Assembly: GCA_030668875.1 (NCBI GenBank)
Contig: DAOVER010000005.1
Span: 26,597-90,596 of the forward strand
DNA from: Candidatus Heimdallarchaeota archaeon
Lineage (GTDB): Archaea; Asgardarchaeota; Heimdallarchaeia; Heimdallarchaeales; Heimdallarchaeaceae
Direction of reading: 5' to 3'
Length of the DNA stretch: 64,000 bases
Part shown: positions 9,145 to 45,695 of the stretch, in pieces
Layout of the letters: each line of letters opens with the position of its first letter
Position numbering within the stretch: the first letter of the stretch is position 1
Made by a program: the position numbers and the translations under genes
The notes under the pieces: model-generated
What the model was told of the DNA's origin: nothing
Databases searched by the model: none
The model's input: the letters and a program-made list of their open reading frames with translations, nothing else

Positions 9145-9864
9145 GTGTTTTTATGCATTCAAGGAGAAAACAAAATGAAAAAGATGAAACTAATAATTCC
9201 ATTAATCTTAGTTGTAGTGTTACCTATTTTTGTCTTACCAACAGATGCTTTCATACCTGAAGATCAAGTTTTGATATTAGATCAACAATACTTCACAAGG
9301 GAAGCTGTTGAAGGAGAAAATATTACTATTGGAATTATTGTTAAGAATTTCTTTAATTACACAATTACAGACGTAAACATCTCATTAGACCTTACTGAAG
9401 AGGTCAACGCACTAAGATTTACTTCTTGTGATTTTGGTTCCCTCTCCAAGGAAAATGTTACTCTTAATTCAACAATGCAATCATCTGATGAAAACGAGTT
9501 CACTTCCACAAACATAACTTATGGTTATATGACAGAAAGTCATCTCACTTTCAATGTTTCACAGATATTGAATGGAACCCAAGCAATTTTTTATTATAAT
9601 GTGACTTCAGATGAAGATAGGTCAGCACAAGTTCCATATGTAAGAATGTCTTATTATGATAATTGGGAAGATCTTCAGGAAATTCAGAGTCAAAACCTAT
9701 TATTACTCAATTTCTTACCAGCTAATCCCCTAAAAGATCCAGTTTTACCCTGTTGGGAGTGTGGTGAATCCTTGCCAAATGTTTGGGGCTGGATTATTAT
9801 AGGGTTAGCACCAATATTATTTGGAGCTATAATTTCCTCTGTTTTATACATACGCAGAAGATAA
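9145..9864 (+). CDS. secreted, C-terminally membrane-anchored protein with many N-glycosylation sequons
   Basis: N-terminal signal-like segment KLIIPLILVVVLPIFVLP. C-terminal TM helix WGWIIIGLAPILFGAIISSVLYI followed by RRR. Multiple N-x-S/T sites. Confidence 0.55.
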   Translation: MFLCIQGENKMKKMKLIIPLILVVVLPIFVLPTDAFIPEDQVLILDQQYFTREAVEGENITIGIIVKNFFNYTITDVNISLDLTEEVNALRFTSCDFGSLSKENVTLNSTMQSSDENEFTSTNITYGYMTESHLTFNVSQILNGTQAIFYYNVTSDEDRSAQVPYVRMSYYDNWEDLQEIQSQNLLLLNFLPANPLKDPVLPCWECGESLPNVWGWIIIGLAPILFGAIISSVLYIRRR

Positions 9865-10943: not shown

Positions 10944-11495
10944 ATGAACCCACATGTTGAAGTGAAATTTAGAGATTATGATATCTATAAACTAGTTATT
11001 TGTGGTCCCGGTAAATCAGGTAAAACATCTATTTGTAAAAGATTAACTCAGAATACTTTTCAAAAGAAGTATCAACCAACTTGTGGGGCTGAATTTCACA
11101 GTTATTCATTCAAAACATCTAAAGGTAAAGCAGTGGCTCTTTTCTACGATATGGCAGGACAAAAGCGTTTTGGTGTTGTAAGGAATCTTCTCTATTCAGG
11201 TACTAATGCTGCAGCAATTGTTTTTGACATATCAAACAAAGAATCCTTTCGAGAATGTGCAAAATGGATCAGAGAACTAAGAACTCAAAACAAAGAATTA
11301 GACATCACTATTGTAGGGAATAAAACAGATTCTACGCGAGATGTTGAGAAAATTGATGCTGAGAGAATTAGTCGCAGACTTGGTTGTAGATACGTTGAAA
11401 CTTCAGCTTTAACCGGCGATGGTATAGGAGATTTAGTTAAAACTTTGGTAAGTTCTGCTATTATTAGTTCTAATAAGAAATTTGTAGGGAGATAA
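10944..11495 (+). CDS. Ras-superfamily (Rab/Ras-like) small GTPase
   Basis: G1 GPGKSGKT, switch-I Thr (QPTCGAEF), G3 DMAGQ, G4 GNKTD and G5 ETSAL. There is no C-terminal Cys for prenylation. Confidence 0.85.
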   Translation: MNPHVEVKFRDYDIYKLVICGPGKSGKTSICKRLTQNTFQKKYQPTCGAEFHSYSFKTSKGKAVALFYDMAGQKRFGVVRNLLYSGTNAAAIVFDISNKESFRECAKWIRELRTQNKELDITIVGNKTDSTRDVEKIDAERISRRLGCRYVETSALTGDGIGDLVKTLVSSAIISSNKKFVGR

Positions 11496-12794: not shown

Positions 12795-14111
12795 GTGTAT
12801 AGTATGAGCAAAAATAAGCAGGAGAAGACGGTTGAGCCTGAAATAAAGGAAGTTGAGGAACAATATGAAGAGCTCCTTATAGAAGAAGCTAGAAAAGAGA
12901 TGGTTGAATCAGATGAGATAGTCTCAATTTTAGAAATAAAGGATGTTCCTGGTTTAGGCAAAAAAAGTCAAGATGTCTTAGCTGATAATAATATATTAAC
13001 GATTGATCAATTGATGACAACAAGATTAATTGAATTGCAAGCAATGGGATTACAACGTGCTACGATCAAAAAAGCCCGTGCTGTAATCTCCAAATCAGTT
13101 GCAAAATACAAATATTTTAAGGAAGAATTGGGACTCGAGGATCTTCCAGGAGTTGGAAAATCAACTGCGGACATGTTACGCGAAAAGGGTTTGAATGTCT
13201 ACCTTCTTGAAACAACTCCTATTCGTGAACTAGAAGATAAGTATGGAATTACAGAAACTGCTTCAAAGAAGTATAAGGAAGGGTTAAGCGAGTTAAGAGG
13301 AGGGATTGACTTTGTTAGTGCTTTTGAAATAATGGAAAAACAAACGGACGCTCCCTCTTTCACCTATGGAATAAAGGCTTTAGATGCATTAACTACCATT
13401 GAGGAACTTGATGTATCGGGTGTGAGGCTAGGAGAAACATTAGAACTTTTTGGCCCGTTTAGATCTGGCAAATCACAGATCTGCCATCAACTTTGTGTAA
13501 CAGTACAATTGCCAACTGAATTAGGGGGGGTAGGAAAGAAAGCAGTTTTTATTGATACTGAAGGAACTTTCTCACCTAGTAGAATTAAGGCTGTTCATGC
13601 TAGATTACAGAGTGAACTCGGTTGGGAAAAGAGCTTTGAAGATGTCCTTAAGGACATAACTTATGCAAGAGCTTACAACTCAGACCATCAAATGAGTTTA
13701 GTAGAAAGACTACTTGAATTGTTCTACAATCATAAGGATGAGTATGGTTTTGTAGCTGTAGATTCAGCAACCGCACATTTCAGAGCTGAATATGCAGGCA
13801 GAGGAACGTTAGCTGAAAGACAACAAACAATCAATCATCATTTAGGCATATTAGGTAGACTAGCTGACACATACACTGTTGCTGTTGCAATAACGAATCA
13901 AGTTCAGTCAAATCCTGCAGCCTTCTTCGGTGATCCGACACAAGCTATTGGCGGGAATATTTTAGGTCATTGGGCAGTAACAAGATTTTATTTGAGAAAA
14001 TCAAAAGGTGAAAAACGAATAATAAGAATATATGATTCGCCGTATTTACCTGAATCAGAAGCAGTTTTCGCAATTACTCCAGAAGGCTGCATCGATGTAG
14101 AAGGCGGTTAA
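12795..14111 (+). CDS. radA: RadA/Rad51-family recombinase with an extended N-terminus carrying two HhH-type segments
   Basis: Walker A GPFRSGKSQ, Walker B FVAVDSATAHFRAEY, and ITNQV...GGNILGH. The N-terminus has DVPGLGKKSQDVL and DLPGVGKSTADML. An ATG at 12801 is an alternative start. Confidence 0.9.
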   Translation: MYSMSKNKQEKTVEPEIKEVEEQYEELLIEEARKEMVESDEIVSILEIKDVPGLGKKSQDVLADNNILTIDQLMTTRLIELQAMGLQRATIKKARAVISKSVAKYKYFKEELGLEDLPGVGKSTADMLREKGLNVYLLETTPIRELEDKYGITETASKKYKEGLSELRGGIDFVSAFEIMEKQTDAPSFTYGIKALDALTTIEELDVSGVRLGETLELFGPFRSGKSQICHQLCVTVQLPTELGGVGKKAVFIDTEGTFSPSRIKAVHARLQSELGWEKSFEDVLKDITYARAYNSDHQMSLVERLLELFYNHKDEYGFVAVDSATAHFRAEYAGRGTLAERQQTINHHLGILGRLADTYTVAVAITNQVQSNPAAFFGDPTQAIGGNILGHWAVTRFYLRKSKGEKRIIRIYDSPYLPESEAVFAITPEGCIDVEGG

Positions 14112-15538: not shown

Positions 15539-15690
15539 ATAATCTCACAGTTGTAAAGAATACATCGAATTTAAAAAGAGTTTTGGAAGAGGTTATCAAT
15601 TTTCATAATAGAAACTATATAAAACATTCTAAGTCACTAGAGCATTAGTAATGTTAATAAATCTAACTCGCTTTTCTTAAATGACAGCTA

Positions 15691-15855
15691 ATGAGTGAAA
15701 GAGACATTGTCGAATTACTAGTAAGGTGGCGTTCGCTAGCAATGATGCTTGAAAGAGAGGAATTCAAAAGAATAGCAGGGGATCAAAAGGGTCTAATTGC
15801 AGCCGTTCTTATGATATTACTAGAGATGCAACAAAACTCGTCTGGAGGATACTAA
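15691..15855 (+). CDS. small ORF (54 aa) upstream of the E2 gene, absent from the ORF track
   Basis: My translation is MSERDIVELLVRWRSLAMMLEREEFKRIAGDQKGLIAAVLMILLEMQQNSSGGY. It ends 43 nt before the E2 start. There is no homology support. Confidence 0.25.
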   Translation: MSERDIVELLVRWRSLAMMLEREEFKRIAGDQKGLIAAVLMILLEMQQNSSGGY

Positions 15856-15898
15856 ACTTAATCTCAATTAGTCAAATCTAAAGGAAGGATTTGAACAA

Positions 15899-16366
15899 AT
15901 GTTAGCAGAAGAAGAGTTCTGGCCAAGGATAGCAATTGAAGCTAATGAATTGAAAAAAGAGCTTCCAACATTTAAACCAGTGGACAATAATACTTTGTTT
16001 TGGAGAGGATTCATTTTTGGAGCTGGGTTATATGAAGAAGGAGTATTTGTTCTTGAAATTGAAATTCCCAGAGAATATCCCTTCAAACCACCAAAAGTCA
16101 AAATGTTAACAAAAGTATTCCACGCAAATGTTTTCGATACAAGAATATGCGTAGGAGTATTAGGAGTAGATTGGACACCTGCTAATAACCTAGTAGATGT
16201 AATTGAATCAATAAGGTTCATACTTAGCAATCCAAATCCAGATGATCCTTTGAACTCTACGGCTGCTAATTTGATGAAACGTGATCCAAAGGAATATTCC
16301 CGCAAAGTAAGAGAATATGTTGAGAAGTATGCTACTTTTGAGCAGATAGGCAAATATTCGTTGTAG
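15899..16366 (+). CDS. ubiquitin-conjugating enzyme E2 (UBC fold)
   Basis: YPFKPPKVKMLTKVFHANV...RICVGVLGVDWTPANNL matches the UBC core: an HPN-like HAN triad, a catalytic Cys, and W-x-P-A. Confidence 0.85.
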   Translation: MLAEEEFWPRIAIEANELKKELPTFKPVDNNTLFWRGFIFGAGLYEEGVFVLEIEIPREYPFKPPKVKMLTKVFHANVFDTRICVGVLGVDWTPANNLVDVIESIRFILSNPNPDDPLNSTAANLMKRDPKEYSRKVREYVEKYATFEQIGKYSL

Positions 16367-23183: not shown

Positions 23184-23268
23184 GCCAGGATATCCAAGCG
23201 GCTACGGAGATGCATTGGAAATGCATTGCCCTTGTGGCGCCGGGGTTCGAATCCCCGTCCTGGCTCCA
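23184..23268 (+). tRNA. tRNA-Ser(GGA), class II with a long variable arm and encoded CCA
   Basis: Acceptor GCCAGGA/TCCTGGC. Anticodon stem ATGCA/TGCAT with loop TTGGAAA. T arm CGGGG-TTCGAAT-CCCCG. Variable arm TGCCCTTGTGGCGC. Confidence 0.9.
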
Positions 23269-23943: not shown

Positions 23944-25221
23944 ATGGGTGGAATTAAGAGAAAAAGAAAGAAAATCGAAACGCCAGGTCATCCTTATGAT
24001 AAAGCTCGCTTAGAGAGAGAACTCCCTCTTGTTGGTGCTTATGGTTTAAGAAACAAGCGCGAATTATGGAAAGCAAGAACTATTCTTTCTACAGCTAGAC
24101 AACAAGCTAGAGGCTTACTAGCTCTTGACCCTGAAATTAGAAAAGTTAGAGAACAAGAACTTCTTTCAAGACTCTCTCGTTTTGGTATGTTATCTCAGAA
24201 TAGCAATCTTGACTCTGTTTTAGCACTTGAAATTAAAGTCATTCTTGAAAGAAGACTTCAAACAATTGTATTCAGAAAAGGTTTAGCATCCTCTCCGTAC
24301 CAAGCTCGTCAATTTATTGCTCACAGACACATAGCTATTGGAACTGGTGTTGCAACATCTCCTAGCAGATTAATCACAATAGCTGAAGAGGAGATAGTCA
24401 ACTACGCTCCCCGTTCTCCACTGAATGATCAAACTCATCCTTCGCGACCTCAAGCACCTCCTGCTTTTGATGCGGGGCAACCTGAGAAAAGGGAAGAACA
24501 TAAGCGTGAAAGAACTGGAAGAGATGGCAAACCTAGAAGGAAAGAAGCTCCAAAGAAGGAAACTAAACCAGGAGTTAAACCAAAACCAGAGGTAAAGAAG
24601 GAAACTCCAAAGAAAGAAGCTCCAAAGAAGGAAACTAAACCAGGAGTTAAACCAAAACCAGAGGTAAAGAAGGAAACTCCAAAGAAAGAAGTTCCAAAGA
24701 AGGAAACTCCAAAACCAGAGGTAAAGAAGGAAACTCCAAAGAAAGAAGTTCCAAAGAAGGAAACTCCAAAACCAGAGGTAAAGAAGGAAACTCCAAAACC
24801 AGAGGTAAAAAAGGAAACTCCAAAACCAGAGGTTAAAACAAAGCCAGAAGTGAAGAAAGAGGTTCCAAAGAAGGAAACTAAACCAGAAGTTAAAACAAAG
24901 CCAGAGGTAAAGAAGGAAACTCCAAAACCAGAGGTAAAGAAGGAAACTCCAAAACCAGAGGTTAAAACAAAGCCAGAAGTAAAGAAAGAAGCTCCAAAGA
25001 AGGAAACTAAAATCTCTGACCTTGACATCTCTTTGATAAAAGGTATTGGTGCAAAAACTGCCATGCTTCTCAAAGAAAATGGCTTTGATACTGTTGGTAA
25101 GATTGCTAAGGCAACTACTGAAGAACTTTCCAAAGTTCCAGGTGTTGGTCCCGCTACTGCATCAGCTATGAATAGTGAAGCTAAAGTTTTGCTTTCAAAG
25201 AAAGCTGAGGATAAGAAGTAG
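23944..25221 (+). CDS. rps4: 30S ribosomal protein uS4 with a C-terminal extension of about 260 aa (K/P/E tandem repeats plus an HhH module)
   Basis: The N-terminal ~165 aa is a normal archaeal S4 (PGHPYDKARLERE...S4 RNA-binding domain). Then come KPEVKKETPKKE repeats and ISDLDISLIKGIGAKTAMLLKENGFDTVGKIAKATTEELSKVPGVGPATA. Confidence 0.9.
   Translation: MGGIKRKRKKIETPGHPYDKARLERELPLVGAYGLRNKRELWKARTILSTARQQARGLLALDPEIRKVREQELLSRLSRFGMLSQNSNLDSVLALEIKVILERRLQTIVFRKGLASSPYQARQFIAHRHIAIGTGVATSPSRLITIAEEEIVNYAPRSPLNDQTHPSRPQAPPAFDAGQPEKREEHKRERTGRDGKPRRKEAPKKETKPGVKPKPEVKKETPKKEAPKKETKPGVKPKPEVKKETPKKEVPKKETPKPEVKKETPKKEVPKKETPKPEVKKETPKPEVKKETPKPEVKTKPEVKKEVPKKETKPEVKTKPEVKKETPKPEVKKETPKPEVKTKPEVKKEAPKKETKISDLDISLIKGIGAKTAMLLKENGFDTVGKIAKATTEELSKVPGVGPATASAMNSEAKVLLSKKAEDKK
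24544..25008 (+). repeat. in-frame coding tandem repeats inside uS4 (72-nt unit x2, 57-nt unit x2, then shorter KPEVKKETP variants)
   Basis: gaagctccaaagaaggaaactaaaccaggagttaaaccaaaaccagaggtaaagaaggaaactccaaagaaa recurs with a 72-nt period at 24544 and 24616. Related units continue to about 25008. Confidence 0.9.
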
Positions 25222-25805: not shown

Positions 25806-26252
25806 ATGACAATTACTAAAGCTAAAATATTTGCATGTGAAATCTGTGGGAAAGAGTTTGGAAGAAAGGACAATCTAGGAAGGCACAAAATAACAGTTCA
25901 TTCCAAATCACAGAAGCATAAATGTCCAAAGTGCAATTTTTCTTCAACAAGAAAAGATAGTCTTGATAAACATATCAAAGAAGTTCACAGTGAAGTAAAG
26001 CAATATTCTTGTAAAATGTGTGGAGAAAGGTTCACACAAAAAGGGAGTATGGAAAGGCATATAGATTCCTCTCATAAAGACGTTTTTTCTTTTGCATGTC
26101 CCAAATGCAATTCAATTTTCTCAAGAAAAGATAGCTTGTTACGACATATCAGAAGTGTGCACGAAGGTATAAGACCTCACAAATGTTCAGAATGTGGTAA
26201 AAGCTTTCAACATAAACATCATCTGAAGGATCACCTAATTTTAGGTCATTGA
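25806..26252 (+). CDS. C2H2 zinc-finger protein, 5 tandem fingers
   Basis: There are five C-x2-C-x12-H-x4-H units, for example CEICGKEFGRKDNLGRHKITVH and CSECGKSFQHKHHLKDHLILGH. The period is about 28-29 aa with linkers such as EGIRPHKC. Confidence 0.9.
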   Translation: MTITKAKIFACEICGKEFGRKDNLGRHKITVHSKSQKHKCPKCNFSSTRKDSLDKHIKEVHSEVKQYSCKMCGERFTQKGSMERHIDSSHKDVFSFACPKCNSIFSRKDSLLRHIRSVHEGIRPHKCSECGKSFQHKHHLKDHLILGH

Positions 26253-26261
26253 GGGAAGGAA

Positions 26262-27425
26262 ATGAGTAACTCGGAAAAAATAATAATGCGACCAACTTGT
26301 GAAATCTGCGGTCTTAGTTTTTCAAGAAAAGACAGTTTGTATAGACACAAACGATCAGTTCATTCAGAGTCAAAGAAATATAGCTGTACAGAATGCAATC
26401 TCACATTTTCTCGTAAAGATACACTGGATCGTCACATCAATGATGTCCACAAACAAATAAGGAAATATATTTGTACCATATGTGACGAGAAGTTCAAACA
26501 AGCGGGTGCTCTAAAAAGACATATCCAAACAATGCATGAGAAGAATATTAGTTATGAATGTCCAAACTGTGATGCAGCATTCCCGCGTAAAGACAACCTA
26601 GACAGACACATAAATGCCGTTCATTTAAACCTCCGACCCCACATTTGCCAGGAATGTGGTGCAGCTTTCAAACTACCTGATCACCTTAAGCAGCACATTA
26701 TTTCCATACATACTGACCGGCGTCAATATGTTTGTGATGAATGTGGTTTTGCTTTCAAACTTCGTCAACATCTAAATGATCATGTCAAAGTTGTTCACCT
26801 AGGTCTTCGTTCTTATGCTTGTGAGGAATGTGATTCTTCTTTTGCTCATGCTCGTGCTCTTAAGCAACACATTATTTCTGTTCATACCGATGAACTTCCT
26901 TATGTTTGCGAGAAATGTAAGAGAGGATTTGCAGATCCTAGTCATCTATATAGGCATGAAAAAGCTGAAGCTTGTTGGTTTACAACTACTACTGCCTACA
27001 AATGGGAAGAGCTTTGTAAAGAGATAGCTGAGATTCTTTTAGAGGAAAAGAATTGGGAGTGGAAACCTACTATAGAAACACCTGAGTTGGTTGAACAGAC
27101 TAGAGTGCAGCCTGAGATTGTTATCTATAATGATGATGGTACGATGGATTTTATCGATGCTAAGAGGTCTACTTATGCTATTTTCAAGGAGAAGGATCTG
27201 GTAGTTTATCCTAAGGTGGCTAGGAGGGTGGAGTTCTGGTGCCTCTACGGTAAAACCAAGGGGATATTTGAAGAGGAGGAAGGGGTGGAAGCGAAATCAA
27301 GTGAAGAAATCATTGGCAAACTAGAAAAGGAAGATTCGCATGATGGACAGAGAGTAAGGAATCTAATAATGAAGATTAGTTTATTGAAAAAGGGAATAAG
27401 ATTTGAAGGACAACAGACACTGTAG
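26262..27425 (+). CDS. C2H2 zinc-finger protein with 8 tandem fingers and a C-terminal domain of about 150 aa carrying a PD-(D/E)XK-like motif
   Basis: Seven C-x2-C-x12-H-x4-H fingers plus a terminal C2HC-like finger (CEKCKRGFADPSHLYRHEKAEAC). The C-terminal region has KWEELCKEIAEILLEE ... VQPEIVIYNDDGTMDFIDAKRS. Confidence 0.85.
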   Translation: MSNSEKIIMRPTCEICGLSFSRKDSLYRHKRSVHSESKKYSCTECNLTFSRKDTLDRHINDVHKQIRKYICTICDEKFKQAGALKRHIQTMHEKNISYECPNCDAAFPRKDNLDRHINAVHLNLRPHICQECGAAFKLPDHLKQHIISIHTDRRQYVCDECGFAFKLRQHLNDHVKVVHLGLRSYACEECDSSFAHARALKQHIISVHTDELPYVCEKCKRGFADPSHLYRHEKAEACWFTTTTAYKWEELCKEIAEILLEEKNWEWKPTIETPELVEQTRVQPEIVIYNDDGTMDFIDAKRSTYAIFKEKDLVVYPKVARRVEFWCLYGKTKGIFEEEEGVEAKSSEEIIGKLEKEDSHDGQRVRNLIMKISLLKKGIRFEGQQTL

Positions 27426-27464: not shown

Positions 27465-28283
27465 TCAATACCCATACCTTGAGGGTAAGCTTGATCTGTA
27501 ATCATAACTTCTAAACAAGTTTTCAATTAACCGAGGGATAGATTCGCCCCTAAAATCTCTAACTGTGTCTATTATATCGTCATCTTTACCCTCTAACAGC
27601 TTCAACCAAAGCTGAGGTTTGTATCTTACAATGTTGGAAAGCATCCAAGAACCTACAAATGCATCAAATGGGTTATAACTTCCTATCACATCAACAAATG
27701 AAGGAACAGATCTCTTTTCCAAATAATCAGAAATATTTGGAAAGCCCTTGAGATTGTCTTCAGCTAAAAGAAGTAGTAAGCTGTAAAAAACACCTTTATC
27801 ATAGACTTTAGCATGCATATACGGTCTGTTTTCTACATATTTGCCTTTTTTCGAAAGACCATGATGAGTGAAGAAAAACACCTCGTCTTTCATTTCATAT
27901 TCAAGACAGAACACTCCTTTGACACATTGTAATAATGCATAGTATTCAACAAGTGGGCTAGAGTTTTCATCCATTTTTAAGGCAGTTTTAAACATCTCAT
28001 AGATCTGTTGAAAATAGATACTAGAATAAATAGCTATTTCAGTATAATCGATTTCAAAATCCCTAGTTTTCACTAGATTTGCTTTCTTATGGATATTTTC
28101 TAGAAGATTAATTTTTGCATCTTTACGCTCTCTTTCAGTCTTATGGATTCTTCTAGATTTCATTTGCTCTTCTTTTGAATCACAGGTTGGATTGAACCTG
28201 GTAATCAATTTTTTCTTAAGATAATATGGAATAGAGTATTTCTCAAGATTATAGAGAACGATTTGGTGATACTTGTCAATCAT
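27465..28283 (-). CDS. hypothetical protein, YaaC-like (weak), partner of the PLD nuclease gene
   Basis: Starts 3 nt after the upstream PLD gene stop. The C-terminal SWMLSNIVRYKPQLWLKLLEG resembles the YaaC-family ...RY.P..W... region. Confidence 0.35.
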   Translation of the reverse strand: MIDKYHQIVLYNLEKYSIPYYLKKKLITRFNPTCDSKEEQMKSRRIHKTERERKDAKINLLENIHKKANLVKTRDFEIDYTEIAIYSSIYFQQIYEMFKTALKMDENSSPLVEYYALLQCVKGVFCLEYEMKDEVFFFTHHGLSKKGKYVENRPYMHAKVYDKGVFYSLLLLLAEDNLKGFPNISDYLEKRSVPSFVDVIGSYNPFDAFVGSWMLSNIVRYKPQLWLKLLEGKDDDIIDTVRDFRGESIPRLIENLFRSYDYRSSLPSRYGY

Positions 28284-28285
28284 TA

Positions 28286-29068
28286 TTAAACCTCAGTTTT
28301 ATTAATTTTCAATCGGATTGGTTTCAGTTGTCTATAGCAAGAACGGCAGGCAGGTTTATTTGTTGAAATACTTACCTCAGCTCCACATATGTGACAATAA
28401 TTTCCCTTAACAAAACCTCTTCTCTTATCTTTCCAACAATCCTTACACCTTATAACGTGGGTCTCTATTGCATCAAGAGCTATTTTTTTCTTGCAAACTA
28501 TGCAAAAACCCAGTTCTTCTTGATTTTCAGCATAAACAGTAAAGTGTTCTCCTTCTTGTTTGAATTGTAGCTCAATCGCCTGTTTACCATTATCAATAGC
28601 TCTAATTTCTTCTCCATTTCTAACAAGAACTGAGATATATTTATCAATCAATTCTAAGTTAGGCAAATCGTCTTCACCTTCGAAATCGACTCCAATCTCA
28701 AAGTTATCCTTTAGTGAATGGTAATAAAGATTCATTGAAGTAGTTAATGCTCTATCTCCATTATAATAACACTTTGCATGAAGATTAGGTACAAGCCAAA
28801 TTTCATCAGAATAATCGTATAGCTTATCTCTTATAGCTTGTGTTTTCGTCAACCTTTTCTCAGCTGATTTATCATCTGGTTTTCTTGTAATAAAGACAAT
28901 TTGCAGATCTTTGTTTTGTTCTATTAAACTATCCATTAACCTAGACCACTGACCATCTTTTTTTTCAAGTTGAATATAGGGGCTAACTATATGTATGTGT
29001 TTAGTAGCCCTTTCAACTATTTCCTCTATAGCCCCAAATATAGAGCCAGTGCTTGTTAGAATTTTCAC
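28286..29068 (-). CDS. PLD-superfamily (single HKD, Nuc-like) nuclease with a C-terminal four-CxxC zinc ribbon
   Basis: NLHAKCYYNGDRALTTSMNL is an HxK...D...SxN motif. The C-terminus has CIVC...CKDC...CHIC...CRSC. Confidence 0.6.
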   Translation of the reverse strand: MKILTSTGSIFGAIEEIVERATKHIHIVSPYIQLEKKDGQWSRLMDSLIEQNKDLQIVFITRKPDDKSAEKRLTKTQAIRDKLYDYSDEIWLVPNLHAKCYYNGDRALTTSMNLYYHSLKDNFEIGVDFEGEDDLPNLELIDKYISVLVRNGEEIRAIDNGKQAIELQFKQEGEHFTVYAENQEELGFCIVCKKKIALDAIETHVIRCKDCWKDKRRGFVKGNYCHICGAEVSISTNKPACRSCYRQLKPIRLKINKTEV

Positions 29069-29122
29069 TTCTTTTCACTTCCCATCCAAGCAAATAATTA
29101 AATAAACTATAAAAGTTTTTAG

Positions 29123-29139
29123 GGGATTTATTGTTTGAT
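29123..29139. repeat. left copy of the 17-bp direct repeat flanking the IS (gggatttattgtttgat)
   Basis: An identical 17-mer occurs at 30142..30158. Confidence 0.9.
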
Positions 29140-30141
29140 GTTAACTCAACTAAGATCGGTTACACTTTTGGGCAGGATATCTTTGGGAGGTTGGTTCATA
29201 AATCTTTCACCTGGAGTTTGGAGGTTGATTCCTTGATGAGGGCGGAAGAAGTTGTAATAGTCCCTATAGCGCCGGAGGTCAGCGTTACAATAAGCTAATC
29301 CCAGCCGCTTCAGCTCTCTGACGGTTGTACCATGCTGGCGCTCTACTTTCCCACAAGTCTCAGGGTGGAAGAAACGGCTGCGGATATGCTTTATTCCTTC
29401 CTGAGCGAGCACGCGGGTGAAGGTACTTGTCCCTCCTCGCATAGAGTGGAACTGTGCTCCATTGTCTGTTAGTACTTGCTGGGGACGCCTATAAAGCTGG
29501 AAGCAGTGGTGTAACCTTGTCAAGATCTCTTGCTGGCTAATAGGATGGGTGTAGAGTCTACTCTCCAGGAGGAAGCGGGAGTGGTCATCAATGATGGTTA
29601 AAAGATAAAGGTGTTGTCCTTGCTCTTCCACCCAGAAGGGACCTTTGATATCCAGTTGCCAGAGGTCATTGGGTTTGGGTCGTTCGAATCTCTTTCTCGC
29701 CTTCTTCTTGTACGGTTTCTTTCTCCAAGGAGGTTCTCCTTCTCGTTGGAGAGTCTTCCAGATGGTGGTGTGGGAGAGCACCAAGCCTTTCCTCTTGAAC
29801 CATTGCTCAGTCTGCATGATGTTCAAGCCATAGGCTCGTCTCAAGGTGAGGATCTTCTTCTTTATCTGTGGTGTTACCTTTCTCCTTATGCATCTTGGTC
29901 GTCGAGAGCGTTCTTCCCACCATTTTCCCTTGGGGTTCTCACGATAACGTCTTAACCAGGTGTAGACGAATTTTCTTGAGACCATGTACTGTCGAGCAAG
30001 GTGGGTGATAGGTGTTCTTTTCAAAGCCTTTTTAACTACGCGTTTCCTTATAAGTGTCGGGTTACTGTTCGGGTTCATTTAACTCATTTACCCACGGTAA
30101 CCCCTCTTATTTAACTGTCACCAATGTGGGTGGAGTTAACA
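29140..30141 (-). mobile_element. IS481-like insertion sequence (about 1.0 kb, single transposase ORF)
   Basis: Imperfect terminal inverted repeats: (T)GTTAACTCAACTAAGATCGG versus the reverse complement TGTTAACTCCACCCACATTGG. It is flanked by a 16-17 bp direct repeat. GC content is clearly higher (about 50% in lines I counted) than the flanks (about 30-35%). Confidence 0.85.
29146..30078 (-). CDS. DDE transposase (HTH plus integrase-core rve domain), IS481-family-like
   Basis: LWQLDIKGPF (first D), IIDDHSRF, LTDNGAQF (second D), HPETCGKVERQH (E) and YNFFRPHQGI. Confidence 0.9.
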   Translation of the reverse strand: MNPNSNPTLIRKRVVKKALKRTPITHLARQYMVSRKFVYTWLRRYRENPKGKWWEERSRRPRCIRRKVTPQIKKKILTLRRAYGLNIMQTEQWFKRKGLVLSHTTIWKTLQREGEPPWRKKPYKKKARKRFERPKPNDLWQLDIKGPFWVEEQGQHLYLLTIIDDHSRFLLESRLYTHPISQQEILTRLHHCFQLYRRPQQVLTDNGAQFHSMRGGTSTFTRVLAQEGIKHIRSRFFHPETCGKVERQHGTTVRELKRLGLAYCNADLRRYRDYYNFFRPHQGINLQTPGERFMNQPPKDILPKSVTDLS

Positions 30142-30158
30142 GGGATTTATTGTTTGAT
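30142..30158. repeat. right copy of the 17-bp direct repeat flanking the IS
   Basis: Identical to 29123..29139. Confidence 0.9.
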
Positions 30159-30175
30159 TAATGAAAAGTTCTGTA

Positions 30176-31246
30176 TCATCGTTGTCTTATAACATAATTT
30201 ACAATTGTTTCAACCTCTTTTGAAGAAAATGTTTCTTCGAAATAAGAGATATAATTCACTATTTCTTTAAGTGAAAGAACTTTCACAAACTGAAATTGCT
30301 CTTTAGGTTTAGCATTAGTCATTAGAAGCACACTACGAATAGCGATTTTCTTTTTTCCCCAATGATGAGAACTAAGACGAAGAGAACCACTAGAAACAGA
30401 GCTATTTAGAAGAGTGAAAAGAGCAAAATTTGCACGTCTAATTTGTTTAACTGGTGAAAACAGGTTCAGATTTTGTAGAGATTTCTCGCTCCAGTTTTTA
30501 GTTTCAAGTAAAAACACTCCTGAAGGACCAACAACAAGATGGTCAACTTGTATAGATAATATTTTATCATTTTCTTTTCTATTGCAAATTGGACGATTAA
30601 AAGACATCTGAAGATCATTGATAACAGTGAATGTATCTGGAAGTTTCTTTAGTTCTTCAGTAACTTGTTGTTCTCCTATGGTTCCAGAAATTAGGGTGTA
30701 GTTATCATCTAAAATTCTATTTATGAGATTGATTCGGTTAGTATAATTTTGAGATCGTTTTGATATTAAGGTTTCAAAGTTGGTTTCACGATAGGTTACA
30801 TCGCGTTCTAGATTCTTAATTTTCTTGGAAAGATGACGAAAGGGTTTTTCAACTTCATCTATAAAATAGTGTGTCAACTTGTCAAGTCTTTTAGAAAGTT
30901 GATTGAGTTTAATTTTGTAAAATAGGAGCTTGAAAGGATTCTTAGTCGATGAGGAATATTGAATGATCTTAGAAGGGATTAGTTCTTTTTCTTCATTAAG
31001 TAATTTTGTTTGATTAGATATCATCTCTTGATATTGATTTGTGAGTAGAGTATAATCGGATTTAAGTTGACTAATTTCAGCAAGAAGTTTCTCTTTTTGC
31101 TGTTCTTGATGCTGTGAAATAGAATTTTTCCAAGTTTTCTTAAAAGTCTGTATTGATTCAAGAGTTGAAAACTCTCTGATGTTATTTTGTTTTAAGACAT
31201 ATAGAAGATGATTAAGAGAACTAGAATTACCATATATGCGAGCCAA
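30176..31246 (-). CDS. NERD (nuclease-related domain) protein with a long N-terminal coiled coil
   Basis: GTIGEQQVTEELKKLPDTFTVINDL...ILSIQVDHLVVGPSGVFLLETKNW is the NERD signature. The N-terminal ~190 aa is heptad-rich. Confidence 0.8.
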   Translation of the reverse strand: MARIYGNSSSLNHLLYVLKQNNIREFSTLESIQTFKKTWKNSISQHQEQQKEKLLAEISQLKSDYTLLTNQYQEMISNQTKLLNEEKELIPSKIIQYSSSTKNPFKLLFYKIKLNQLSKRLDKLTHYFIDEVEKPFRHLSKKIKNLERDVTYRETNFETLISKRSQNYTNRINLINRILDDNYTLISGTIGEQQVTEELKKLPDTFTVINDLQMSFNRPICNRKENDKILSIQVDHLVVGPSGVFLLETKNWSEKSLQNLNLFSPVKQIRRANFALFTLLNSSVSSGSLRLSSHHWGKKKIAIRSVLLMTNAKPKEQFQFVKVLSLKEIVNYISYFEETFSSKEVETIVNYVIRQR

Positions 31247-31400
31247 AGAAATACCTCCATTCCAACGGAATATTCAATCAAACAATCTTAATAAAACTTG
31301 TTATGAACAGGTATTCGTCCATTTTATAATTTAGACCGTAGAATGTAGTTTTACTCATTCACATTTTTCTTTTATTTTTGTAATATTCTTATATACTGAA

Positions 31401-31859
31401 ATGTTAGACTGTTTCTCAATGGGTCTCAACATCGATTTATCCAAACTTGATTACGCCTTTCATCGTAAACCTTTGCTTATAGGTGGGAAAGTTATGGAAT
31501 ATTATAATCTACGTAAAGCAGGTGATGATGTAGACTTTGTTGTAGCTTTAGAAGACTATGAAGGCTTAAAAGAAGCCTATCCAGAACCAGAATACCAGAG
31601 GGGCTTATTTGGTGATCTTGGAGTAACAGTTGATGAATCAGAGGTTTGGAAATGTATATGTCTTTTCGAATATAAATTCTTATCAGAAAAAGCATTAGAA
31701 ATGGAAGAATATCTAATCATATCATTAGAGAAATTGCTCTTTTTGAAAGTTTTAGCAATGCACAAAAGAAAATATCGAAAAGATGTAAAACTGATAAGGC
31801 AAAAGATTCTGGACAATAAATATGATGACGAAGAGTGGAAGGAGAAATATATGAAATAA
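31401..31859 (+). CDS. hypothetical protein, possible minimal nucleotidyltransferase fold
   Basis: LLIGGKVMEYYNLRKAGDDVDFVV resembles the GG...R...D.D motif of small nucleotidyltransferases (weak). Confidence 0.3.
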   Translation: MLDCFSMGLNIDLSKLDYAFHRKPLLIGGKVMEYYNLRKAGDDVDFVVALEDYEGLKEAYPEPEYQRGLFGDLGVTVDESEVWKCICLFEYKFLSEKALEMEEYLIISLEKLLFLKVLAMHKRKYRKDVKLIRQKILDNKYDDEEWKEKYMK

Positions 31860-31885
31860 CATTGTAGAAAGGAGCTTACTTCTTC

Positions 31886-32335
31886 TCAATTCTCCTTTAT
31901 CGTACCGGTCAATTCGAGTAATTGTTCATATTGCCAAACGCGTTCCTTAGTATCAACTTTAGCAGCATAATTTGCTGCATGAACAGCGTGCCCTGCAACA
32001 TGGACAGTAGCAGTTGCATGACCAGCTGCACGTGCAACTGTACAAGCTACAGCGTTATCAACTTCTCTAGCCGCGGCATGAGCAGCAAATGCTGCAGAGC
32101 GTACCTTACCTACAGAGATCTCCCCATATGTCCATGAATGTGCTGCTTCTATCGCTTTCCTCGGTCGGTCATCATTGGGAAATTTATCTTCAAAATAGGA
32201 TAACACATGTTCCACACAATAAATCGCCCAGATCACCAATGATCTTTTTTCCATTTTGCTTGTAATCTCTGCAATCTTCTTCTTAAGGTCGCTCTCGGAA
32301 TTAAGGGCAGAACTATCCTCACTCATACTTACCAT
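31886..32335 (-). CDS. Ala/His-rich helical protein of the family usually annotated as putative immunity protein (Imm-5-like)
   Basis: WAIYCVEHVLSYFE...DDRPRKAIEAAHSWTYGEISVGKVRSAAFAAHAAAREV...ARAAGHATATVHVAGHAVHAANYAAKV matches the W..CAEHVL/D.RPR.AIEAA/AAHAAAR/AAGHA pattern I recall for that family. Confidence 0.45.
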   Translation of the reverse strand: MVSMSEDSSALNSESDLKKKIAEITSKMEKRSLVIWAIYCVEHVLSYFEDKFPNDDRPRKAIEAAHSWTYGEISVGKVRSAAFAAHAAAREVDNAVACTVARAAGHATATVHVAGHAVHAANYAAKVDTKERVWQYEQLLELTGTIKEN

Positions 32336-38854: not shown

Positions 38855-41389
38855 CTATTTTTTTGGAGAGCTTGGATAAGTTCCGATTGGCATTAGCACT
38901 CGCTTTACACTAGAGACTATACCGTGTTCCTTTTCAGGAAGAGTTATTGCATCAATCTGTGCTTCACCTAATGCAACCAATTCATTCTTCAAGGTATAAA
39001 TCGCTACCATGTCGCCTGCTTTGAATTCTTCTGAATACCTTGAAACACCTGGTAAAGCTAATGGGGCACCATGACAGATAGTATTAACCGCACTGTCTTT
39101 GATAATAACTTGTGGTATATGTCTCACCCCATATTCCATAGGTAGAATAATGTTTCGTAAGGGATTTTCATCTTTTTCTTCTCTATACCATGCAAAAGCA
39201 TCATATAAATCATGGAGAGTGGATAAGAAATCATTTTCCGAAAATGGTCCAGAGCGCGTTCGTCTAAGTTCCTTCATATGAGCGCCACACGATAAACTTT
39301 GTCCAATATCATGGCAATTAGAAGACACAAAACCTGTTTCAATGAGAAAATTATGAGTTTTTGGTACAGTCATATCATAAACATAACCAGTACTTTGGAC
39401 ATTCTCAATTGATTCTATTTTTTCAATAATGAAATCATCCAGTTCTGGTAACATTATGTGTGTAGAAGCAGTTTTGTAGAACCCTCGCGTCATAGGGATA
39501 TTTTCTTTTAAAATTCTATCCAAATTTCCACCCATTATTTTTTTCAATTCTGTTTTATGGGAAATTAAATAATTCGCAAAATGAAAACCAATATGATATT
39601 TATCTCCATATTCATGATCAGAATTCAGTTCTTCGAACTCAGTGAATTTTCTGATTTTCTCTGGATGGTTAGAACCAATTTCATTGATGAATTTCAACTC
39701 TGCACCTATCGTACCAACAGACACTATATACATTGTAGTGATATAATTCTTAAAATTAACTTCTCTTGAAAAAATAGTATTTTCAATTTCTAATTTAAGT
39801 AGTAATTTATGAAGTATTATTGCTTCACTTCTGTTAACCGTGTATAAAGAAATACGAGATTTAACACTATGAGAATATGTTTTTATTTGTACAGACCCAT
39901 CCCCATCAAAATAACCTCGTAAGTAGGAACAAATCAATTTAGGTTCAAGTTGGAGCAAAGGAGAAAAATCAGCATTCTTTTTTGGGCTTCTTATTCCTAA
40001 AGATGCTGCTATAGTAGCAAGAAGAGAGTTTGTAAGAGATACACCCCAAACACCATTTTTATCTTGATTAACCGAATAATGTGAATTTGGGAATAATTCT
40101 TTGTAAATTTCAACATACTTATCAATTAGTTCCTTATTTGTATTATTAAAAATTAATCTTGTATAACGTACTGTATTTTTCTCTTTTGAATTATTTCCAT
40201 CTGAAGCAATTAATCCTAAAAGATAAAATAAAGATTCATTTAGCTCTCTTAGCTTAATGATTTGACCTTTTACTTGCTTAAATCTATAAATTTGTTCTTT
40301 AACATCTTCATATATTCCAGCTAGTTTAAGATGTTTTATTTTTATCGAGTAAGAAGAGTTTGAAACAAATGGCTGCCTACTAACATCTAGTTTTCTGCTC
40401 ATTTCTCTAATACTACCATATTTTTTAATGAAGGCGTTTTTACATTTTTCCTTTATTTCATCTTGTTCTATAAGGTACTCATCATCCAAAAGATCTGACA
40501 CAATTAGTTTTTTACTAGTTAAGTTTGGTTTAAAACTTTTAACTAAAAAATCACCAACTCTTAATTTTCTAGCTTCAGTCATATTATAACCAACATCTGT
40601 AGATTTCAACATTTCATGGTCTGGTGTAATAATTATTGAAATACCAGTTTTCATTTTTAGTTTAATTAAAACTGGAGGGGAAGGGATGGTTTGAACTGCA
40701 GATGGATCTTTTTGATCTATTTTTCCATCAACAAAAGAAAAGATTGTTTTTGGACTTTCAACGAAATCTTTAGCTGAAACTGATCCTTCAGCTGTAAGAA
40801 TCTGAGTATTAGGATGTAAACAATATTTTCTAACATAAAATCCTGCTTGAGAGCTTATCCTAAAAAGAACTTCTCTTTCCCTTATATCAAGAATCTCTGA
40901 ATTATAGATGGTTCGAATTCTTAATACTCTTTTTACACTTGCCCTTAATGGGGGTCTTTGATACAAATCACCAACATAATCACCAACAATAGATCTTATT
41001 CTTTCTTCATCAATATCGGCGTGTAATCGCATATTTCCAACGTATTCCTTTCCAGCGAGGAGAAGTGTATCCAATATTCGAGTTGCTTTTCCTAAAGCCG
41101 TAGGAAGAACACCGGTTACCTGTGGGTCCAAGGTTCCAGAATGACCCGCTTTTGGAATGCCAAGAATCTTTTTTACATAACTAACTACTTCATGGCTAGT
41201 TGGATTAGGAGGTTTGTCCAAGTTGATGATACCATAATTCAATAATTCTGCAATTGTTCGATTTGAAGGCTTTTTTCCCCATTTAAAATCAGTTGTATCT
41301 CTGGAAAGTATCTTTAAGGGGTACTTATTGTCATCAAATGATAACTTTGGGGTGGAAAAAACTAATGTCATGATATCATCACGGAGCAC
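38855..41389 (-). CDS. cbf5: H/ACA RNP pseudouridine synthase Cbf5 (TruB family) interrupted by an intein
   Basis: The exteins carry GHSGTLDPQVTGVLP (catalytic Asp motif), YQRPPLRASVKR, AGFYVRKY|CHDIG..GAHMKELRRTRSG and a PUA-like C-terminus. The exteins sum to 342 aa. Confidence 0.9.
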   Translation of the reverse strand: MLRDDIMTLVFSTPKLSFDDNKYPLKILSRDTTDFKWGKKPSNRTIAELLNYGIINLDKPPNPTSHEVVSYVKKILGIPKAGHSGTLDPQVTGVLPTALGKATRILDTLLLAGKEYVGNMRLHADIDEERIRSIVGDYVGDLYQRPPLRASVKRVLRIRTIYNSEILDIREREVLFRISSQAGFYVRKYCLHPNTQILTAEGSVSAKDFVESPKTIFSFVDGKIDQKDPSAVQTIPSPPVLIKLKMKTGISIIITPDHEMLKSTDVGYNMTEARKLRVGDFLVKSFKPNLTSKKLIVSDLLDDEYLIEQDEIKEKCKNAFIKKYGSIREMSRKLDVSRQPFVSNSSYSIKIKHLKLAGIYEDVKEQIYRFKQVKGQIIKLRELNESLFYLLGLIASDGNNSKEKNTVRYTRLIFNNTNKELIDKYVEIYKELFPNSHYSVNQDKNGVWGVSLTNSLLATIAASLGIRSPKKNADFSPLLQLEPKLICSYLRGYFDGDGSVQIKTYSHSVKSRISLYTVNRSEAIILHKLLLKLEIENTIFSREVNFKNYITTMYIVSVGTIGAELKFINEIGSNHPEKIRKFTEFEELNSDHEYGDKYHIGFHFANYLISHKTELKKIMGGNLDRILKENIPMTRGFYKTASTHIMLPELDDFIIEKIESIENVQSTGYVYDMTVPKTHNFLIETGFVSSNCHDIGQSLSCGAHMKELRRTRSGPFSENDFLSTLHDLYDAFAWYREEKDENPLRNIILPMEYGVRHIPQVIIKDSAVNTICHGAPLALPGVSRYSEEFKAGDMVAIYTLKNELVALGEAQIDAITLPEKEHGIVSSVKRVLMPIGTYPSSPKK
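39317..40822 (-). mobile_element. 502-aa intein with a LAGLIDADG homing endonuclease domain inside cbf5
   Basis: Starts at Cys (CLHPNTQILTAEG). Block B is IITPDHEML. The LAGLIDADG motifs are LLGLIASDGN and YLRGYFDGDGSV. Ends ...NFLIETGFVSSN, followed by the +1 Cys of CHDIG. Confidence 0.85.
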
Positions 41390-44240: not shown

Positions 44241-45695
44241 GTGAATTACATGGTTTCAAAGTTCTTGATGCTATTCAAACCGTTTCAACGTTTTACCTTT
44301 GAGGTAAAGAAGCCAGCAAGAAAACCTTCTTTTAAAAGAAAGTTAGCTTGGACCTTCGGAATCCTAGCCCTCTATTTAGCTATGCTAAATATTCCTATTT
44401 TCGGTATACCTGAATCAGGTGGAACCGATCCCTTCTTCGCCATGAGGGCAATATTAGCTTCACAAAGAGGAAGCTTAGCAGAATTAGGTATAGGACCTAT
44501 TGTAACTGCTGGTTTGATTATGCAGTTACTTGTGGGATCACAAATTATCAAAGTTGATTTTACTAATCCTGAAGAACGTGCTCTATACACCGGAACACAA
44601 AAAATACTTGCTATATTGATGACCCTATTCGAAGCTTTAGCATATATTCTTGGTGGAGCTTATGGAGAGTTAGGTTTCCAAGCACAAATGATTGTATTAT
44701 TGCAATTAATTGTTGCAGGTTTTACCATTCTTCTTATGGATGAAGTTATCCAGAAAGGTTATGGACTTGGAAGCGGTATTAGTTTATTCATTGCTGCAAG
44801 TGTTTCATATACTATCTTTGATGGCATGTTCAGTTTAACGCAAGAAAGAATTGGAGGTTTTGATTGGTACAGAGGTTGCGTTCTCGCATTCTTTCAAGGT
44901 ATCTTCAAAGAAAATCCAGACATACTAACACCACTCAGTAGACCTGGTAGAACCCCCGATGTAATTGGTTTACTGGCAACAATAGTTGTTTTTGCAATGG
45001 TTATCTATGTAGACTCTATGAAAATTGAGATACCTGTCCAACACAGCCAATATAAGATGCCAGCCAGATATCCAATAAAATTCTTATATACGTCAAATAT
45101 CCCTGTAATCCTTGTAAGCGCCTTATTTGCAAACATCTACTTCGTTTCAAACCTAATGCACAACTCTTGGAGTGATATAACAACGGGTTATCAAGGATTC
45201 TTGGTCGACTTTTTCGGTAGATGGGATACGATAGAAGGCACGGAACAACTAACTCCAGTTTCGGGGCTAGCAGCTTTTACAACGGCACCGTATGGACCTG
45301 AACAAATTGCGGAGCAACCGTGGCATGCCCTAGTGTATTTACTATTAATGGTTGCACTTTGTGGTATCTTCTCGCGTATTTGGATAGATACGGCTGGGAT
45401 GAGTTCAAAAAATGTTGCGAAACAACTGTTAGATGCAAATATGCAAATACCTGGTTTTAGGCGTAATCCAAGGATTGTAGAAAGATATCTAGAAAGATAC
45501 ATTCCTACAGCAGCCTGGCTCGGAGGTTTCTTTATAGGTGTTCTAGCAGCAGTAGCGGACTTTCTGGGAGCTCTTGGTACGGGTACTGGTATTCTGTTAA
45601 CAACGGGTATTCTCCGTCAGTACTATGAAATCTTCGCTAGTGAACAAATTAGTGAAACTGTTCCAGCTTTAGCTGGAATGTTAGGAATAAAATAA
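44241..45695 (+). CDS. secY: protein translocase subunit SecY/Sec61-alpha (canonical copy)
   Basis: RGSLAELGIGPIVTAGLIMQLL, YPIKFLYTSNIPVIL, the L8/9 loop IPGFRRNPRIVERYLERYIP, and GTGILLTTGI. Confidence 0.9.
   Translation: MNYMVSKFLMLFKPFQRFTFEVKKPARKPSFKRKLAWTFGILALYLAMLNIPIFGIPESGGTDPFFAMRAILASQRGSLAELGIGPIVTAGLIMQLLVGSQIIKVDFTNPEERALYTGTQKILAILMTLFEALAYILGGAYGELGFQAQMIVLLQLIVAGFTILLMDEVIQKGYGLGSGISLFIAASVSYTIFDGMFSLTQERIGGFDWYRGCVLAFFQGIFKENPDILTPLSRPGRTPDVIGLLATIVVFAMVIYVDSMKIEIPVQHSQYKMPARYPIKFLYTSNIPVILVSALFANIYFVSNLMHNSWSDITTGYQGFLVDFFGRWDTIEGTEQLTPVSGLAAFTTAPYGPEQIAEQPWHALVYLLLMVALCGIFSRIWIDTAGMSSKNVAKQLLDANMQIPGFRRNPRIVERYLERYIPTAAWLGGFFIGVLAAVADFLGALGTGTGILLTTGILRQYYEIFASEQISETVPALAGMLGIK

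Follow-up and report, generated by a model that had tools for sequence, protein, structure and literature searches.

The archaeon Caldiarchaeum subterraneum carries a Ub-E1-E2-srfp(RING)-Rpn11 operon (Hennell James et al. 2017, PMC5654768; Fuchs et al. 2018, PMC6043591), in which a eukaryote-like E2 and all other components of what is presumably an E1-E2-(E3) ubiquitin (Ub) cascade are encoded together. According to a 2023 preprint that works with twelve E2-related clusters of orthologous genes (COGs) of Asgard archaea, the genes of the ubiquitin system do not always lie together in Heimdallarchaeia (10.1101/2023.07.25.550441). In AB_125, four E2-like genes are spread around the genome, and HeimAB125_07740, which with one other of them bears a catalytic Cys, has been classed as a bona fide E2 with its UBC domain modelled as residues 6-146 (Hatano et al. 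2022, PMC9192718); the ubiquitin (HeimAB125_14240) and a UEV-Vps28 fusion (14070) lie elsewhere in that genome, beside ESCRT genes (PMC9192718). Here, we analyze a stretch of 64,000 nucleotides (nt) from a Candidatus Heimdallarchaeota archaeon (contig DAOVER010000005.1), hereafter the window, in which a gene for a 155-amino-acid (aa) ubiquitin-conjugating enzyme E2 (15899..16366, + strand) is preceded by a small open reading frame (sORF; 15691..15855, + strand) encoding a 54-aa protein (MSERD...NSSGGY). We consider it highly probable, taking the evidence as a whole, that this locus pairs a catalytically competent, UBE2D-like, core-only E2, a dispersed paralog, with a helical-hairpin protein that is most likely an accessory partner of the enzyme and not a modifier.

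The E2 itself is already catalogued and has been published, and in Heimdallarchaeia it is normal for E2/UEV paralogs to be dispersed. The exact protein of the window is present in NCBI as "ubiquitin-conjugating enzyme E2" of Heimdallarchaeaceae under several accessions (e.g. MCK5140796.1), and its homologues are almost exclusively proteins from Heimdallarchaeaceae or Heimdallarchaeota metagenome-assembled genomes that already bear this name. A scan of one genome per species yielded 43 related loci (these and further loci are designated by L numbers below). The AB_125 contig is one of these (L012): its E2, OLS32550.1, is 94% identical to that of the window over all 155 residues and adjoins OLS32551.1, which is HeimAB125_07750 and the ortholog of the 54-aa ORF. 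We equate OLS32550.1 with HeimAB125_07740 on the basis of this adjacency and of the matching domain range (6-146), not of a printed locus tag. The two loci share the HAN triad, Cys84 and the flanking genes including the 54-aa gene; there is no substantive difference between them, the window coming from a sister lineage. At two other loci (L001 and L031) the E2 is identical to that of the window, with neighbouring genes 78-96% identical.

The 155-aa protein is a canonical core-only UBC/E2 with its catalytic Cys in place. It matches UQ_con (PF00179) with E=1.4e-33 (115.9 bits against a gathering score of 27), residues 17-140 covering profile positions 11-139 of 140, and a phmmer search of PDB sequences returned 278 E2 chains, the best being UbcH5b/UBE2D2 (E ~5e-28). 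By both phmmer and BLASTP, Cys84 (in RICVGVL; codon at 16148-16150, + strand) aligns with the catalytic Cys85 of UbcH5B (SICLDIL), and the H75-A76-N77 triad (16121-16129, + strand) aligns with HPN, at an overall identity of 39% (BLASTP); W92-T-P-A95 and PNPDDPL are conserved. The original prediction had recognized a UBC core from the HAN variant, the Cys in RICVGVL and the W-x-P-A motif, and both the sequence and the significant UQ_con match, with Cys84 on the catalytic position, uphold it. An AlphaFold2 (AF2) model built from 27 homologues (predicted local distance difference test score, pLDDT, 96.5; predicted template modelling score, pTM, 0.89) has UBC topology, with a helix at 4-21, four strands and then helices at 98-110, 120-128 and 130-144. 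The top 50 Foldseek matches to this model are all E2s (template modelling score, TM, 0.83-0.90), and it superposes on UbcH5a/b with TM 0.85-0.90 and a root-mean-square deviation of 1.2-1.8 A. Since it lacks extensions at either terminus as well as an acidic-loop insertion, the protein is a class I, UBE2D-like E2.

Comparison with UbcH5a/b/c (UBE2D, Ubc4/5) shows a common UBC fold, 36-40% identity, a shared absence of terminal extensions, and retention of YPFKPPK, the catalytic Cys, W-x-P-A and PNPDDPL. The window E2 differs in having HAN in place of HPN, a loop from the triad to the Cys that is one residue shorter, a 3-residue deletion in the region of the backside Ser22, and Gly86 where UbcH5 has Asp87. 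In UbcH5, Phe62 and Pro95-Ala96 contact RING/U-box E3s, and the alignment shows that these positions (in YPFKPPK and SPA, respectively) are kept in the window E2.

The most conspicuous of these differences is the triad, in which His75 and Asn77 are present and the Pro is replaced by Ala76. Across 47 tblastn hits (the related loci plus the window), HAN occurs in 27, all of them members of the AB_125-like clade whose E2 is at least 86% identical, and HPN in the other 20; the catalytic Cys is present in 47 of 47, and the conserved W-x-P-A loop varies only slightly across the related loci. The E2 remains 92-100% identical across loci where the zinc-ribbon neighbour falls to 40-47% and QueE to ~65%, and the proportion of nonsynonymous differences (pN) is 0.005-0.06, with synonymous sites near saturation. 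Because this very strong constraint persisted after the substitution, HAN is probably a tolerated, clade-fixed variant of HPN, and neither the sign of a pseudo-enzyme nor the hallmark of a different family. Degeneration of HPN to HAN could instead have left a UEV-like ubiquitin binder with no catalytic activity; the change of Pro76 to Ala in this clade would fit this, and Asgard genomes do hold E2-derived UEV proteins (PMC9192718). We nevertheless judge such a loss of activity very unlikely: the catalytic Cys, the triad His and Asn and PNPDDPL are all kept, strong constraint continued past the P-to-A change, and the AB_125 ortholog has been grouped with the Cys-bearing E2s (PMC9192718). Membership among the UEVs of the ESCRT-I Vps23/TSG101 type was also rejected: a UEV is by definition a variant that has lost the Cys, whereas Cys84 is present here and aligns with the catalytic position.

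An active E2 would, by homology, work as follows. An E1-like enzyme encoded elsewhere in the genome would load ubiquitin onto Cys84 as a thioester, Asn77 of H-A-N and the PNPDDPL loop would support aminolysis, and the conserved surface formed by F62 and P94-A95 of the window E2 would dock RING-type E3s.

None of the other parts of such a cascade is encoded nearby. Among 71 ORFs that make up essentially the whole 64 kb window, Pfam detects no ubiquitin, ThiF/E1, RING, U-box, HECT or JAMM domain. For the final ORF (61854-63350) the coverage is by pattern scan only, and no RING pattern occurs in any six-frame ORF of the window, this one included. The sole JAMM-like pattern match among the six-frame ORFs sits within citrate synthase and is spurious, and the window holds no further plausible small GG-ended ORF, the two other matches being ribosomal S14 and a shadow ORF. 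A clustered operon of the Caldiarchaeum type is thus ruled out, with no Ub, E1, RING or JAMM gene adjoining the E2: whereas all components are together in the Caldiarchaeum operon, here none of the others lies within 64 kb, and the only constant neighbour of the E2 is an orphan helical mini-protein. On the 3' side of the E2 is a QueE / GCYH-IB (FolE2) / DUF366 / QueD / QueC block, and on the 5' side of the sORF are genes for a coiled-coil protein (CC227), a zinc-ribbon protein (a 4-Cys ribbon, not a RING) and RadA. The original prediction had both ORFs, their coordinates, the GGY end and the 43-nt spacer exactly right, and had correctly placed preQ0 genes beside the E2. Its description of the E2 as stand-alone is accurate in that Ub, E1, RING and JAMM are missing from the window, but this is not unusual for Heimdallarchaeia: the AB_125 E2-like genes are scattered, and, as the only such case, the closest homologue in LC_3, itself a distant one (54% identity; L047 1-2677, MDVS01000004.1), lies two genes from a ThiF-family gene. 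The E2 orthogroup is thus linked to an E1-like gene in the LC_3 lineage. The order at the LC_3 locus is ThiF-family E1-like(-), a 138-aa protein(-), E2(+) and a 175-aa protein with an N-terminal zinc ribbon(-). At another locus (L035 9477-9956 and 10001-10465) there are tandem E2 genes, both with HPN and Cys, the second copy being 44% identical to the window E2.

The neighbourhood also bears on the idea that the E2 belongs to a defence-type module of a ubiquitin-like protein (Ubl), E1 and E2 (CBASS Cap2-like or Bil-like), or is tied to the preQ0/archaeosine genes. There is a weak PADLOC "E2" match (E=5e-4), and the E2 adjoins QueE in loci of the window type and the L044 type. Both versions strike us as extremely improbable, as eukaryotic UBE2D-type E2s (38-40% identity, TM ~0.87) are much the closest matches and no E1, Ubl, deubiquitinase or CD-NTase gene is near the E2. 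Adjacency to Que genes is lost in Ca. Heimdallarchaeum, the tandem clade described below, Hodarchaeales and LC_3, and a T/A-rich, TATA-like block ~28 nt 5' of the QueE ATG suggests a separate promoter for QueE. A link of the E2 or sORF to the preQ0/archaeosine, zinc-ribbon or coiled-coil genes was rejected, because L044/45, the tandem clade, Hodarchaeales and LC_3 do not preserve these adjacencies.

The small ORF is a real gene, and purifying selection acts on it about as strongly as on the E2. Its product retains 76-96% aa identity across 28 related loci with the single-repeat form, although the genes around it there fall to 40-65%, and has a conserved core (residues 1-48) of MSERDIVELLVRWRS.AMMLEREEFK.IAGDQKGLIAA.LMILLE.Q followed by a variable tail. 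Among 27 distinct DNA versions of codons 1-48, pairwise differences at codon positions 1, 2 and 3 stand at 2585:478:6760, and 44 of 48 third positions are variable against 8 of 48 second positions. By the Nei-Gojobori method, pN is 0.00-0.13 against a proportion of synonymous differences (pS) of 0.44-0.98, and the ratio of the corresponding rates, dN/dS, is at most ~0.05 where dS can be estimated. The original prediction had called the ORF unlisted and had allowed that it might lack conservation in related genomes. GenBank in fact annotates it as a hypothetical protein (HeimAB125_07750, OLS32551.1), and we find the opposite of a lack of conservation, namely strong conservation, purifying selection and linkage to the E2. 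An RNA element in place of a protein was rejected: the codon-position pattern is decisive for coding, and an Rfam scan of the window at gathering thresholds was empty. The Rfam negative should be read with caution, since the scan missed even a tRNA-Ser(GGA) that ARAGORN identifies at 23184-23268 (+ strand).

Sequence signals around the two genes suggest that they share a transcript. The TTAATA.A portion of a TTAATAAAT block (15654..15662, + strand) is invariant in an upstream alignment of 11 diverged loci, in which the surrounding intergenic DNA is unconserved. Since it is conserved ~30 nt before the ATG of the sORF, the expected archaeal position, we read TTAATAAAT as the probable TATA box of an sORF-E2 transcript. 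A GGA/GGT-rich element lies 8-10 nt before the E2 ATG in most aligned loci (in the window a putative Shine-Dalgarno-like GGAAGGA at 15883..15889, + strand, 9 nt 5' of the ATG), and the rest of the sORF-E2 spacer (36-66 nt) is unconserved, with no conserved TATA-like block. The conserved probable TATA box before the sORF, together with the Shine-Dalgarno-like site before the E2, suggests a single bicistronic mRNA in the AB_125-like clade.

The 54-aa protein ends in SSGGY, 43 nt 5' of the E2, and SGGY or SGGF ends occur in many close relatives. These are the features that would speak for a modifier, ubiquitin-like or conjugatable in some other way, with an exposed Gly-Gly near its C-terminus on which the neighbouring E2 acts. 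The tail, however, is the only part of the protein that is not conserved, and GG becomes RG, GV, KG or is missing in orthologs 76-96% identical. Close relatives end in SSRGY, GSGGF, GKGVY/KGVY, KSGVY or SG-Y, and others lack the tail and end in QQD, QKR, KEK, QSR or NRP; it is wholly absent at L005, L023, L024, L026/27, L038 and L040 and in the family proteins P0080, P0083-85 and P0087. Homologues with a tandem repeat end in SID, VSKQ or TKSK. The AF2 model (pLDDT 83.5) has helices at 3-20 and 23-51 and no beta strand, so the protein is predicted to be a two-helix hairpin and not a beta-grasp, for which 54 aa would also be too short. The Pfam ubiquitin, ThiS and MoaD families give no signal for the sORF even at E<=10. 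A modifier role is thus effectively refuted, and we would assign it almost no probability; the GG-ended ORF should not be counted among candidate modifiers. The original prediction had described the ORF as helical and too short for a beta-grasp and its Gly-Gly as probably coincidental, and the model and the variable or missing tail agree with it on both points.

The protein belongs to a family that appears, by profile and database searches, to be specific to Heimdallarchaeia, with no detectable relatives outside itself. Its members take two forms, a single-repeat form of 49-57 aa and a tandem two-repeat form of 78-98 aa, the latter in other Heimdallarchaeia lineages. A hidden Markov model (HMM) of the single-repeat form, built without tandem sequences, matches tandem proteins of 88-98 aa at L046 (E=7e-9), L032 (9e-8) and, in Hodarchaeales, L048 (3e-3) among 10,135 ORFs. 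A tandem-seeded database search gave 16 clusters of 78-90 aa, and neither in these nor in the 25 single-repeat clusters is the sORF domain fused to another one; one apparent 788-aa member of a 90% cluster (P0140) is a bacterial FadB-like protein and was rejected as a clustering artefact. Only 5 of 1.84 billion representative proteins matched the sORF profile at E<=1e-3, all of them close family. The sORF has no match in Pfam (E<=10), NCBIfam or PADLOC, its best match in a PDB profile search is a 15-residue alignment to uS14 (E=0.07, noise), and its model retrieves 0 Foldseek hits in PDB. We also considered a split Vps23, in which the E2/UEV, the coiled-coil protein CC227 and the hairpin as "steadiness box" would be its parts; this was discarded, hhalign of the sORF alignment against the TSG101 C-terminus giving a probability of 1.4% and Vps23_core having no Pfam match at E<=10. 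The literature searched contains no mention of the AB_125 locus tag or accession of the sORF.

Wherever the contig is long enough for a judgement, the family member adjoins this E2 orthogroup, in at least 4 arrangements. Loci of the window type (L001-L025, L031, L038 and L040) have the order CC227(-), sORF(+), E2(+), QueE(+). In the complete Ca. Heimdallarchaeum genomes (L026/L027) it is QueE(-), coiled-coil(-), sORF(-), E2(+), Zn-ribbon(+), with the sORF and E2 divergent and ~200 nt apart, and at L044/L045 it is RsmB - sORF - E2 - QueE. The tandem form occurs as MetRS, sORF2x(+), E2(-), aminotransferase, with sORF2x divergent from the E2 (L032, L046 and L051-L054), and in Hodarchaeales (L048) its 98-aa version is one gene away from the E2. 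On the contigs that were found through the tandem protein and not through the E2 (L051-L054), a UQ_con gene is the immediate neighbour in 4 of 4. The contig of one distant homologue (P0088) is only 951 bp long, and its context is uninformative. This persistent adjacency is good comparative evidence, of the neighbourhood kind only, and suggests a functional tie between the sORF and the E2.

It is a serious possibility, which we place a little short of even, that the sORF is real and conserved but sits next to the E2 by inherited gene order, with no functional connection. The RadA-to-QueC block is wholly syntenic within the AB_125 clade, the MetRS / sORF2x / E2 / aminotransferase / PPase order is conserved within the tandem clade, and some E2 orthologs have no sORF nearby. 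Against inheritance alone, the pair stays together while its 5' neighbour changes (CC227, RsmB, MetRS) and its 3' neighbour changes as well (QueE, zinc-ribbon protein, aminotransferase), Ca. Heimdallarchaeum and the tandem clade have the two genes in a different relative orientation, and no family member occurs away from the E2 on contigs long enough to judge. Both genes are under equally strong purifying selection, and in the clade of the window there is a single conserved putative promoter.

Several considerations weigh against our interpretation of the locus as an active E2 with a helical accessory partner. The sORF-E2 link is one of gene neighbourhood alone, and it is partly inherited synteny, the wider gene order also being conserved within each clade. 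Several Heimdall clades have an orthologous E2 with no member of the sORF family within +/-10 kb (L028-L030, L033-L037, L039 and L041), so the sORF is not essential to the fold or chemistry of the E2. The hairpin model comes from a shallow alignment of 21 close sequences and has a pTM of 0.48. As for the enzyme, the Pro-to-Ala change in HPN hits a structurally important turn, and the ubiquitin and E1 of this genome are supposed by analogy with the AB_125 literature.

In the clades that lack the sORF, the E2 adjoins a conserved pair of genes encoding a helical protein of ~118-144 aa and a protein of ~1036-1092 aa without a Pfam domain. This ~120-aa plus ~1050-aa pair is found at L028 10438-14003, L030 10545-14008, L035 5763-9310 and L050 2023-5627, and both members are homologous across these loci (BLASTP 1e-6 to 1e-73). 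The pair may be an alternative E2-linked module, perhaps with a large E3-like or substrate protein. Upstream in the window, 9145-9864 (+ strand) encodes a 239-aa secreted or anchored protein with N-x-T/S-rich repeats, which by eye resembles (VKNF.N.T..NVNIS) the 228-230-aa signal-peptide proteins encoded directly 5' of the E2 in L028-L030.

The sORF is probably co-transcribed with the E2 in this clade, and the most likely role of its product is that of an accessory or regulatory partner of this enzyme. Because other lineages carry two repeats per chain, the single hairpin most likely dimerizes, and the single-repeat protein would then work as a homodimeric four-helix bundle. That the sORF is a dedicated E2 accessory protein we propose tentatively, with a probability well below even; that it is a conserved neighbour of the E2, its relation otherwise unspecified, has a somewhat better chance that still falls below even, and what probability remains goes to other roles.

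Eukaryotes provide an analogy for the accessory role. Cue1 U7BR, gp78 G2BR and Rad18 R6BD are short all-helical E2-binding elements, each dedicated to one E2. They are the closest functional analogy to the possible role of the sORF, and an analogy only: they are segments of larger E3s or adaptors, whereas the sORF is a free-standing gene, and they have no detectable sequence or profile similarity to it. The 54-aa and tandem 78-98-aa proteins could, as a possible though rather doubtful extension of this idea, be a previously unrecognised, Heimdallarchaeia-specific component of the ubiquitin system, a free-standing four-helix-bundle E2 binder. If so, the bundle would be a homodimer of hairpins here and a single chain in the tandem lineages, it would tune E2 charging, localisation or the choice of E3 or substrate, and it would be a stand-alone counterpart of the E2-binding helices that eukaryotes embed in E3s and adaptors. 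A cofactor of this kind would be an extra component to add to reconstituted Asgard ubiquitylation, and a small case of E2 regulation that arose before, or in parallel with, the E2-binding helices of eukaryotes. The new part of our analysis is accordingly modest: an orphan helical mini-protein that is real, strongly constrained and persistently E2-linked, the E2 itself adding nothing new.

Several other genes of the window deserve mention. A Ras/Rab-like small GTPase (10944-11495, + strand; Ras E=3e-37, Roc E=2e-25) is a typical Asgard "eukaryotic signature protein", and two adjacent genes for multi-C2H2 zinc-finger proteins (25806-26252 and 26262-27425, + strand; zf-C2H2 E=3e-27 and 2e-43) belong to a eukaryote-like family. 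The RadA encoded 5' of the sORF (12795-14111, + strand; 438 aa) has a long N-terminal extension with extra helix-hairpin-helix (HhH) motifs, and ribosomal proteins S4 (23944-25221, + strand; 425 aa) and L24/L26 (54158-54934, - strand; 258 aa) have C-terminal HhH (HHH_5) extensions that are unusual for ribosomal proteins. A probable mobile or defence islet at 27465-32335 encodes a YaaC-like protein, a PLD-like nuclease with a zinc ribbon, a NERD-domain protein and an Imm5-like immunity protein, and includes an rve-family integrase/transposase (29146-30078). The Cbf5/dyskerin-type pseudouridine synthase at 38855-41389 (- strand; DKCLD, TruB_N, TruB_C_2 and PUA domains) owes its length of 844 aa to an intein with a LAGLIDADG homing-endonuclease domain at about residues 239-689. 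Finally, two SecY/Sec61-alpha-like genes (44241-45695 and 50272-51651, both + strand) lie within an otherwise minus-strand ribosomal-protein cluster; the first has a full SecY match (E=2e-68), and the second, encoding 459 aa and matching Plug_translocon only (E=2e-10), specifies a divergent SecY paralog.

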